12,329 nucleotides of DNA. Source: a virus (lineage: Duplodnaviria; Heunggongvirae; Uroviricota; Caudoviricetes). Shown one piece after another: positions 3,732 to 4,446 of the stretch (positions are counted from its first letter, which is position 1; every line of letters begins with the position of its first letter). Location: the IMG/VR virus record IMGVR_UViG_2737471824_000002; one strand, written 5' to 3'. The notes below the pieces were generated by a model, which made no database searches, had not been told where the DNA came from, and saw only the letters and a list, made by a program, of their open reading frames with translations. The translations under genes were made by a program, and so were the position numbers.

Positions 3732-3944
3732 ATGTCTAACAAAATGACTGGTTTAGTGAAATGGTTTAACCCTGAAAAAGGTTTTGGTTTCATCACGCCG
3801 AAAGATGGCAGCAAAGATGTGTTTGTCCATTTCTCAGCAATTCAGAGCAACGATTTCAAAACATTAACTGAGAATCAGGAAGTTGAATTTGGTATTGAGA
3901 ACGGACCTAAAGGTCCTGCCGCTGTTCATGTAGTGGCGCTTTGA
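3732..3944 (+). CDS. cspI: Cold shock protein CspI
   Basis: 70 aa [70 protein letters not shown]; matches CspI as I recall it. Confidence 0.95.
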
Positions 3945-3954
3945 GGTAGACAAT

Positions 3955-4143
3955 ATTACAAACCATATTCACTTTAGATGCCCGTGTTGTCATGGTTCCC
4001 AGTATAGAACATCATCTTTTGATGTTTCTGACATGAATCCTTTCGGGGCAAAATGTATCTTTTGTAAATCAATGATGATTACATTTGATAATATTTCACA
4101 ATACTTAAATGCCAGCCGTCTGTCGTTGGATTTAAAAAAGTGA
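3955..4143 (+). CDS. Small zinc-ribbon protein (CxCC…CxxC) with no canonical start codon; possible ATT initiation or a start-codon-mutated pseudogene
   Basis: Open frame from the stop at 3931-3933 to TGA 4141-4143, encoding …(I)TNHIHFRCPCCHGSQYRTSSFDVSDMNPFGAKCIFCKSMMITFDNISQYLNASRLSLDLKK. SD GAGGT at 3943-3947 with a 7-nt spacer to ATT at 3955. The first in-frame ATG (4033) lies after the first Cys cluster. A strong terminator follows at 4149-4171. Absent from the ORF track for lack of a canonical start. Confidence 0.45.
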   Translation: MTNHIHFRCPCCHGSQYRTSSFDVSDMNPFGAKCIFCKSMMITFDNISQYLNASRLSLDLKK

Positions 4144-4148
4144 AAATG

Positions 4149-4171
4149 AAGGCTCCTTCGGGAGCTTTTTT
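4149..4171 (+). terminator. Rho-independent terminator with UUCG tetraloop
   Basis: AAGGCTCC-TTCG-GGAGCTT followed by TTTTTTG, immediately downstream of the zinc-ribbon ORF. Confidence 0.7.
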
Positions 4172-4215
4172 GCTTGGTGTCTATTCGATGGATACTCACA
4201 TACTACGGTAACATC

Positions 4216-4446
4216 ATGAAAAAAATCATAGTTTTTTTTAACTCTGAACCAGCAGTGGTAGTGCCAGCGATGACTGGAGTTAACACCATCATGCGTGAAT
4301 ATCCAAATGGCGAAAAAACACACCTTACTGTAATGGCCGCAGGGTTTCCATCTCTGACCGGAGATCATAAAGTCATTTATGTAGCCGCGGATCGACATGT
4401 TACTTCAGAAGAAATTCTGGAAGCAGCAATAAGGCTCTTGAGTTGA
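4216..4446 (+). CDS. Small protein of the cold-shock moron cluster (possibly YnfN/YmcE-like), function unknown
   Basis: ORF 4174-4446; internal start MKKIIVFFNSEPAVVVPAMTGVNTIMREYPNGEKTHLTVMAAGFPSLTGDHKVIYVAADRHVTSEEILEAAIRLLS (76 aa). It sits between cspI and gnsB, where K-12 Qin has ynfN; start site uncertain (ATGs at 4174, 4216, 4270, 4294). Confidence 0.45.
   Translation: MKKIIVFFNSEPAVVVPAMTGVNTIMREYPNGEKTHLTVMAAGFPSLTGDHKVIYVAADRHVTSEEILEAAIRLLS

Follow-up and report, generated by a model that had tools for sequence, protein, structure and literature searches.

Comparative evidence for the ATT start codon of the Qin prophage gene ynfQ and its association with an adjacent csp gene

Genes and signals at the ynfQ locus

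The DNA analysed here (the window) is a stretch of 12,329 nucleotides from a viral record (IMG/VR IMGVR_UViG_2737471824_000002), and it is a Qin-type lambdoid prophage of E. coli. The annotated gene order around ynfQ is rrrQ, rzpQ/rzoQ, cspI, ynfQ, ynfR, ynfN, gnsB, and ydfO. The features found from cspI to ynfN are given in Table 1.

Table 1. Features of the cspI-ynfQ region, in window coordinates.
Feature	Position	Strand	Remarks
cspI	3732-3944	+	cold-shock protein, 70 aa; ORF list and annotation in identical E. coli records
cspI stop TGA	3942-3944	+	direct reading
Shine-Dalgarno GAGGT	3943-3947	+	overlaps the cspI stop; direct reading
Spacer, 7 nt	3948-3954	+	between GAGGT and ATT
Initiation codon ATT of ynfQ	3955-3957	+	CDS start in RefSeq and PGAP records
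ynfQ CDS (b4724 in K-12)	3955-4143	+	62 aa, YmcF-like; PF23641 match, alignments, pN/pS
ynfQ Cys ligand codons	3979-3981 (C9); 3988-3990 (C12); 4054-4056 (C34); 4063-4065 (C37)	+	
Intrinsic-terminator-like hairpin	4149-4171	+	stem 4149-4156/4161-4168, UUCG loop 4157-4160, T6 4166-4171
ynfR, 21-codon ORF with ATG at 4146	4146-4211	+	reads through the terminator hairpin; annotated
ynfN, 76 aa in the window	4218-4446	+	next gene downstream; annotated

The frame of ynfQ is open from an in-frame TAG (3931-3933) to the TGA at 4141-4143, and contains 62 codons counted from the ATT. It lies on the same strand as cspI, in the +1 frame relative to it, and the gap between the cspI stop and the ATT is 10 nt. 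An earlier note, made from the letters of the window, had described such an open frame right behind cspI, with GAGGT located 7 nt upstream of the ATT; direct reading of the window agrees with both statements. It also agrees that no canonical start precedes the first Cys cluster, as in-frame ATG, GTG, and TTG codons are absent from 3934 to the first Cys codon (3979). An in-frame ATG first occurs at 4033 and would give the 36-aa product that the note had calculated.

The UUCG-loop terminator proposed behind ynfQ was recovered by folding. The hairpin GGCUCC-UUCG-GGAGCU (4151-4166) with the run of six U has a free energy of -14.9 kcal/mol (z = -2.6), and the region 3' of ynfQ thus has the G+C-rich hairpin and the directly following U run of an intrinsic terminator. 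Promoter-like or terminator-like sites were not found between 3732 and 3955, so cspI and ynfQ have the layout of coupled cistrons separated by a short gap.

Identity and existing annotation

A query of 551 nt around ynfQ matched 2,146 E. coli records in 2,145 out of 5,426 complete genomes. The PGAP coding sequence at the position of ynfQ is named ynfQ or 'cold shock small protein YmcF' (WP_071524604.1). In K-12 MG1655 (RefSeq NC_000913.3), ynfQ is b4724, located at 1638256-1638444 on the minus strand, with ATT as first codon, and the UniProt entry of its product is YNFQ_ECOLI. The Pfam family PF23641 (YmcF-like) matches YnfQ over profile positions 1-62 of 62 with 109.9 bits (cut-off 27, E = 7e-32). 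All invariant alignment columns of the family core, F-R-C-P-x-C-H-G-S-Q-Y-R...F-D...N-P-x-G-A-K-C-I-F-C-K, are present in the YnfQ of the window.

The ORF behind cspI is hence ynfQ, a gene of the Qin prophage, and its ATT start is already part of the reference annotation. Being known from RefSeq, UniProt, and Pfam, it was correctly rediscovered in the window and is no new element. The earlier note had called an AUU start unusual, which is right as to its rarity; that the start was already annotated had not been recognised. What is new here is the comparative evidence for the ATT start and for its association with an adjacent csp gene, both drawn from sequence comparison. The searchable literature yielded no paper that tests or discusses the ATT start of ynfQ or ymcF, the mentions of these genes being transcriptomic or list-like, nor did the search turn up N-terminal sequences, reporter fusions, or peaks from initiation profiling for either gene. 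The 'ynfQ' of VanOrsdel 2018 is a separate ORF of 37 aa, since renamed ynfT.

Coding constraint on ynfQ

Homologues were collected from 80 loci (one genome per species, 80 out of 277 genome hits) and from 10 further loci obtained via exact-protein look-ups. The set also took in phage and E. coli records, and comprises 79 unique core coding sequences in total. Among these sequences pN/pS is 0.146 over codons 2-46 and 0.096 over codons 9-38. The stretch between the ATT and the first Cys (codons 2-8) gives 0.26, and the stretch upstream of the internal ATG at 4033 (codons 2-26) gives 0.15. Phe7, Cys9, Pro10, and Cys12 are invariant in the alignment, Arg8 is encoded by six kinds of codons (CGC, AGA, CGT, AGG, CGA, and CGG), and most homologues have Lys in place of the window's Met27, the residue of the internal ATG. 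An intact frame was seen in 2,141 E. coli genomes and approximately 30 sequence clusters of other genera.

The earlier note had considered that ynfQ might be a pseudogene with a mutated start codon. In this reading the gene is decaying after its ATG was lost, or is translated into no more than the 36-aa product from 4033; the window indeed contains no canonical start before the first Cys, and older annotations called a 39-aa product for the paralogue ymcF. However, the codons upstream of 4033 are constrained, the Met27 from which the short product would start is replaced by Lys in most homologues, the ATT is kept in the K-12 paralogue ymcF and across genera, and the frame remains intact throughout the E. 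coli genomes mentioned above. Instead of frameshifts and stops throughout the orthologous frame, the pattern that the note had associated with the absence of selection, purifying selection and intact frames were found. The pseudogene and the 36-aa product were therefore rejected on account of the purifying selection, the codon variety at Arg8, and the lack of conservation of Met27, and we regard both as highly improbable. With its match to PF23641, ynfQ is a real conserved gene under purifying selection and no chance open frame.

Position and conservation of the start codon

The comparison of orthologues that the earlier note had proposed for the codon at 3955 showed ATT to be conserved in E. 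coli, and ATT, ATC, or ATG to be used across homologues. In the 79 unique sequences the aligned first codon is ATT in 49, ATC in four, and ATG in 26. Since 26 unique homologues carry ATG at this very codon, the position of the start can be considered secure. In the window and in at least 12 other loci, the interval from the upstream in-frame stop to the first Cys is free of canonical starts. The 70-nt junction between cspI and ynfQ is 100% identical in 1,575 E. coli records, and E. coli alleles of about 94-96% identity retain the ATT, their downstream changes being synonymous together with a few conservative ones. The ATT was likewise present in 80 out of 80 viral contigs retrieved, which have one identical junction sequence in common; the scan of viral contigs delivered only near-identical copies of ynfQ and added no diversity.

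Starts at TTG or GTG codons inside the csp gene, from which some gene callers predict products of 70-71 aa, were discarded. Such starts are blocked in the window by the TAG at 3931 and are absent at many other loci.

As would be expected of a gene initiated at AUU, of the kind of infC and pcnB, ynfQ possesses a Shine-Dalgarno at working distance and no canonical upstream start, has orthologues with ATG, and is constrained at its N-terminus. The annotated start at ATT 3955 thus appears to be correct and the near-cognate codon to be conserved. This favours the other possibility raised by the earlier note, initiation at AUU, in agreement with the ATG of 26 homologues at the aligned codon and with the start placed there by RefSeq and PGAP.

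Start codon and neighbouring csp gene

For the census of start codons and csp genes, the core sequences were clustered at 12% nucleotide distance. An intact csp gene is located 9-11 nt upstream in 17 clusters with ATT or ATC and in one cluster with ATG, while no intact csp gene is adjacent in 11 clusters with ATG and in one with ATT or ATC. The type of start codon accordingly matches the state of the csp gene in 28 out of 30 clusters (Fisher exact p = 2.5e-6, a value that ignores shared ancestry and indicates strength only). Atlantibacter, in which csp is decayed, reads ATT-ATG and was scored as ATG.

The csp-coupled clusters with ATT or ATC include the Escherichia genes ymcF and ynfQ, and the homologues of Citrobacter, Salmonella, Kosakonia, Scandinavium, Trabulsiella, Yokenella, Siccibacter, Intestinirhabdus, and Dickeya. 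The homologues with ATG are found in at least five different genomic contexts. Enterobacter, Leclercia, and Silvania have ATG and a strong AGGAG without csp, and the homologues of K. quasipneumoniae, K. aerogenes, and Kluyvera, also with ATG, have different neighbours. Among more distant members, csp and ATT are found together again in L176 (gap of 18 nt) and L178 (gap of 13 nt). Exceptions are locus L177, where ATG is located 16 nt after the stop of an intact csp gene, and locus L175, whose ATT is retained at a distance of 203 nt from the csp gene. In the sequences compared, a near-cognate start is thus associated with an adjacent csp gene, and the census supports the link to cspI that the earlier note had proposed.

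In the Klebsiella oxytoca group, Raoultella, and Shimwellia, a csp remnant broken by stops and frameshifts was observed 5' of the ATG homologue (L025, L042, L053, and L076, at about 800-1200). In Citrobacter sedlakii (L011, about 960-1386), a deletion of approximately 20 nt takes the csp stop out of frame, and the csp ORF continues in frame into the YmcF homologue, which has ATG at the usual start position. The Morganella phage IME1369_01 (L088, 1201-1340) encodes an unannotated YmcF-like ORF (MIIALFFQCPCCSGTQYRTS...) with an ATG start; this ATG is located 9 nt past the stop of an intact annotated cold-shock gene and is an exception to the rule of ATT with csp. As the copy of the Morganella phage and L177 illustrate, coupling to csp is not obligatory for the YmcF-like family.

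Pseudescherichia and relatives (L020, L022, L023, L026, L028, L030, and L054, about 1170-1210) possess ATT without an upstream csp gene. In this group an upstream ORF of eight codons (ATG AAA AAA GGA TAC TAT TAT TAC TAA) overlaps the start, its end being located 4 nt behind the ATT. This small ORF might substitute for csp as coupling partner.

Two contigs, assigned by their labels to Veillonella parvula and Mucilaginibacter MAGs (L006 and L060), carry ynfQ and ymcF loci. Compared to the E. coli copies, the junction of L006 is identical and that of L060 differs in one base, and the proteins match as closely as those of E. coli itself. These contigs are most likely mis-binned Enterobacteriaceae contigs. 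In L178 (1-6 and 475-901), a gene of the YnfU family (PF23499), whose member in the Qin region is likewise a small zinc-knuckle protein, is located just upstream of the pair of csp and YmcF-like genes.

Initiation at AUU and coupling to cspI

The junction of the csp-coupled homologues has an invariant pattern, T(A/G)A-GG (TAAGG or TGAGG), followed by a spacer of 7-8 nt and ATT or ATC. Initiation at AUU reaches 1-2% of that at AUG in one report (10.1101/063800) and is 6-8 times lower than at AUG in another (PMC3592434). IF3 discriminates against AUU, and its overproduction lowers re-initiation, the efficiency of which is raised by a Shine-Dalgarno (PMC2268962).

We consider it likely that translation of ynfQ is initiated at AUU 3955, largely by ribosomes that come from the cspI stop, and that YnfQ is kept low and tied to the translation of cspI. 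The cspI-ynfQ mRNA would be a transcript of the cold-shock type, encoded on the Qin prophage, with ynfQ as second cistron. Its translation would start at AUU with initiator tRNA, the start being positioned by the GAGG Shine-Dalgarno that overlaps the cspI stop. Most initiation events would probably involve ribosomes, or 30S subunits, coming directly from termination at the cspI stop, which lies 10 nt upstream, and the synthesis of YnfQ would be held at a small fraction of that of CspI and would depend on the translation of cspI. Re-initiation is proposed as the main route because AUU is weak and discriminated against by IF3. We infer the re-initiation route, the sensitivity to IF3, and the tuning of the YnfQ:CspI ratio, and the parts on coupling and IF3 are the weakest of the proposal. 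The dependence of ynfQ translation on cspI is indicated indirectly, by the co-variation of the start-codon type with an intact csp gene.

Co-transcription of cspI and ynfQ is supported indirectly by joint responses and by the lack of an intervening promoter-like or terminator-like site. The genes cspI, ynfQ, and ynfN were induced together (6.5-, 5.9-, and 5.8-fold; PMC11228462), cspG and ymcF are co-regulated (PMC11228462, PMC11728337), and cspG, cspI, ymcF, and ynfQ respond together (PMC11728337). According to PMC6511841 and PMC6511846, the ratio of IF3 and initiation factors to ribosomes increases approximately 3-fold in the cold. The net effect of cold on ynfQ is therefore ambiguous, since the IF3:ribosome ratio rises and IF3 overproduction lowers re-initiation.

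A 30S subunit could also bind de novo at the own Shine-Dalgarno of ynfQ, in which case the weak codon would set a low constitutive rate, as in pcnB, and the proximity of cspI would reflect shared transcription only. The GAGG is well spaced from the ATT and is found at unchanged distance in the uncoupled ATG homologues, Pseudescherichia and L175 have ATT without a tightly adjacent csp gene, and at the infC-like junction half of the initiation is de novo (PMC3592434). Nevertheless, a purely independent start does not predict that the start-codon type follows an intact csp gene 9-11 nt upstream in all but two of the clusters. ATG is found in several separate contexts in which csp is lost or decayed, and we regard purely de novo initiation as unlikely. 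A start codon would not be required at all if a +1 frameshift at CUU-UGA (3939-3944) produced a CspI-YnfQ fusion. The same slippery site serves prfB, GCG CTT TGA G is found in the window, and ynfQ is +1 relative to cspI with a frame that is open from 3934. However, homologues differ in the final csp codon and its stop (CTC TAA, GTA TAA, CGC TAA, and CGT TGA) and in the gap, which in Kosakonia is 9 nt and hence in frame, and at other loci is 11, 13, or 18 nt. In addition, the window lacks a stimulator similar to a Shine-Dalgarno 3 nt upstream of the CTT, and standalone homologues have ATG at the aligned codon. With the slippery site and the frame relation unconserved and no stimulator, a frameshift of the prfB type was rejected, and a fusion protein seems extremely improbable.

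In the window alone, the Shine-Dalgarno and the ATT fold into a hairpin (121-nt context, z = -2.7). RNAalifold predicted no pairs in 28 coupled junctions, and single folds of 10 junctions gave z values from -1.3 to +0.15 with unrelated shapes. A conserved RNA structure that masks the Shine-Dalgarno and the ATT, with coupling by unfolding, is not supported by these predictions and was dropped.

A more general rule can be put forward only tentatively, and we hold it to be somewhat more doubtful than probable: in YmcF and YnfQ of Enterobacterales, AUU or AUC would be kept only 9-18 nt behind an intact csp gene, and AUG would be used once csp is lost. If true, the weak codon would be a selected device that makes synthesis depend on ribosomes terminating on csp mRNA, possibly also responsive to the IF3:ribosome ratio and its rise in the cold. 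The family would then offer a natural case of re-initiation at a non-canonical start, and two more verified AUU genes would be added in E. coli to infC and pcnB. The rule of a weak start behind a csp gene and ATG when standing alone is testable, and it bears on the choice of start codons in re-initiation and on the way in which the amount of small proteins is kept low and fixed relative to an abundant partner from the operon.

Comparison with known systems

The closest counterpart of ynfQ is ymcF (b4723), located behind cspG in E. coli K-12. Similar to ynfQ, ymcF encodes a protein of 62 aa that belongs to PF23641 (66% identity between the two proteins), starts with ATT after a gap of 10 nt from the csp stop, and is in the +1 frame. 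It also has its own hairpin (GGCTCC...GGAGCC) with T6 right after the stop. The downstream neighbours are similar as well, being ymcE and gnsA at ymcF, and ynfN and gnsB at ynfQ. However, ymcF is chromosomal, whereas ynfQ is found on the Qin prophage and on free lambdoid phages, Tritos among them. As Shine-Dalgarno, ymcF has TAAGG and ynfQ has TGAGG, and in-frame upstream TTG and GTG codons are present inside cspG for ymcF, whereas ynfQ has none.

A survey of 2016 counted only infC and pcnB as confirmed AUU starts in E. coli (10.1101/063800). Such starts are very rare in this species, and the present comparison provides an independent basis for the annotation of ynfQ and ymcF. Like ynfQ, infC, which encodes IF3, has a near-cognate AUU close behind the stop of the upstream gene, together with a Shine-Dalgarno. 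At its junction UAA GGU AUU, the AUU follows the thrS stop after 3 nt, and re-initiation and de novo initiation contribute in about equal shares (PMC3592434). The gap is 3 nt at infC and 10 nt at ynfQ, and infC is autoregulated by its own product, whereas nothing links YnfQ to IF3. The second confirmed case (10.1101/063800; reference 6 in PMC3592434) is pcnB, in which an inefficient AUU start limits the synthesis of poly(A) polymerase and keeps the output low, as proposed for ynfQ. No coupling to an upstream cistron is described for pcnB, and its start was verified experimentally, whereas that of ynfQ is based on annotation and comparative evidence.

The YnfQ protein and its family

YnfQ is presumed, from its sequence, to be a zinc-binding protein with four cysteines. 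The earlier note had given the motif as CxCC…CxxC, and the cysteines are indeed present. However, C11 is replaced in distant members, and the metal site is better written as CPxC...CxxC with C9, C12, C34, and C37, which are the likely ligands because distant members keep them and replace C11.

An exhaustive profile search among 1.84 billion proteins resulted in 42 representative clusters, nearly all of them standalone proteins of less than 100 aa. Two proteins of 430 and 663 aa gave weak matches in multiple stretches (E = 1e-4 and 1e-8), and the search revealed no informative domain fusions. The homologues and loci that are named by organism belong essentially to Enterobacterales and their phages.

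The AlphaFold2 model of YnfQ, with a mean pLDDT of only 69.5, contains short beta elements around both Cys pairs and a C-terminal helix. The search of this model, of middling confidence, against the PDB with Foldseek gave no significant match (best E = 1.6), and a profile search of PDB sequences gave nothing significant either (best E 0.03). In NCBIfam only a sub-threshold match was obtained, to the ECs_2282 zinc-binding family. A review of 2026 models YnfQ with a rubredoxin topology (PMC13348028). The label 'zinc ribbon' for YnfQ is reasonable from the motif, as a putative fold.

The coding sequence of P-C-C-H-G, CC(A/G)TG-YTGY-CA(T/C)GG, located at 3982-3995 in the window and at the corresponding codons of all homologues, is an inverted repeat of 5 bp. 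The third bases of its Pro and His codons can pair in 62 out of 79 unique sequences. This pairing could be due to chance or shared ancestry.

Downstream neighbours ynfR and ynfN

Similar to YnfQ, YnfR is the product of a short ORF in a cold-shock csp locus. YnfR has an ATG start and, in contrast to YnfQ, which is conserved across Enterobacterales, is not conserved even among E. coli alleles. The accumulation of YnfR-SPA rises after cold shock (PMC6001520). As the ynfR ORF runs straight through the terminator hairpin of ynfQ (4149-4168), the expression of ynfR probably depends on terminator read-through. The co-regulation of ynfN with cspI and ynfQ (PMC11228462) also suggests read-through of this terminator. 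In E. coli alleles of about 95% identity, PGAP marks the ynfR site as a 'too short' pseudogene, and on the basis of these calls ynfR is poorly conserved.

The ynfN gene encodes 76 aa in the window, as in most E. coli records, and contains a T8 run at 4232-4239. In K-12 MG1655, T7 instead of T8 follows ATGAAAAAAATCATAG, and ynfN is annotated with 51 aa only, from an internal start.
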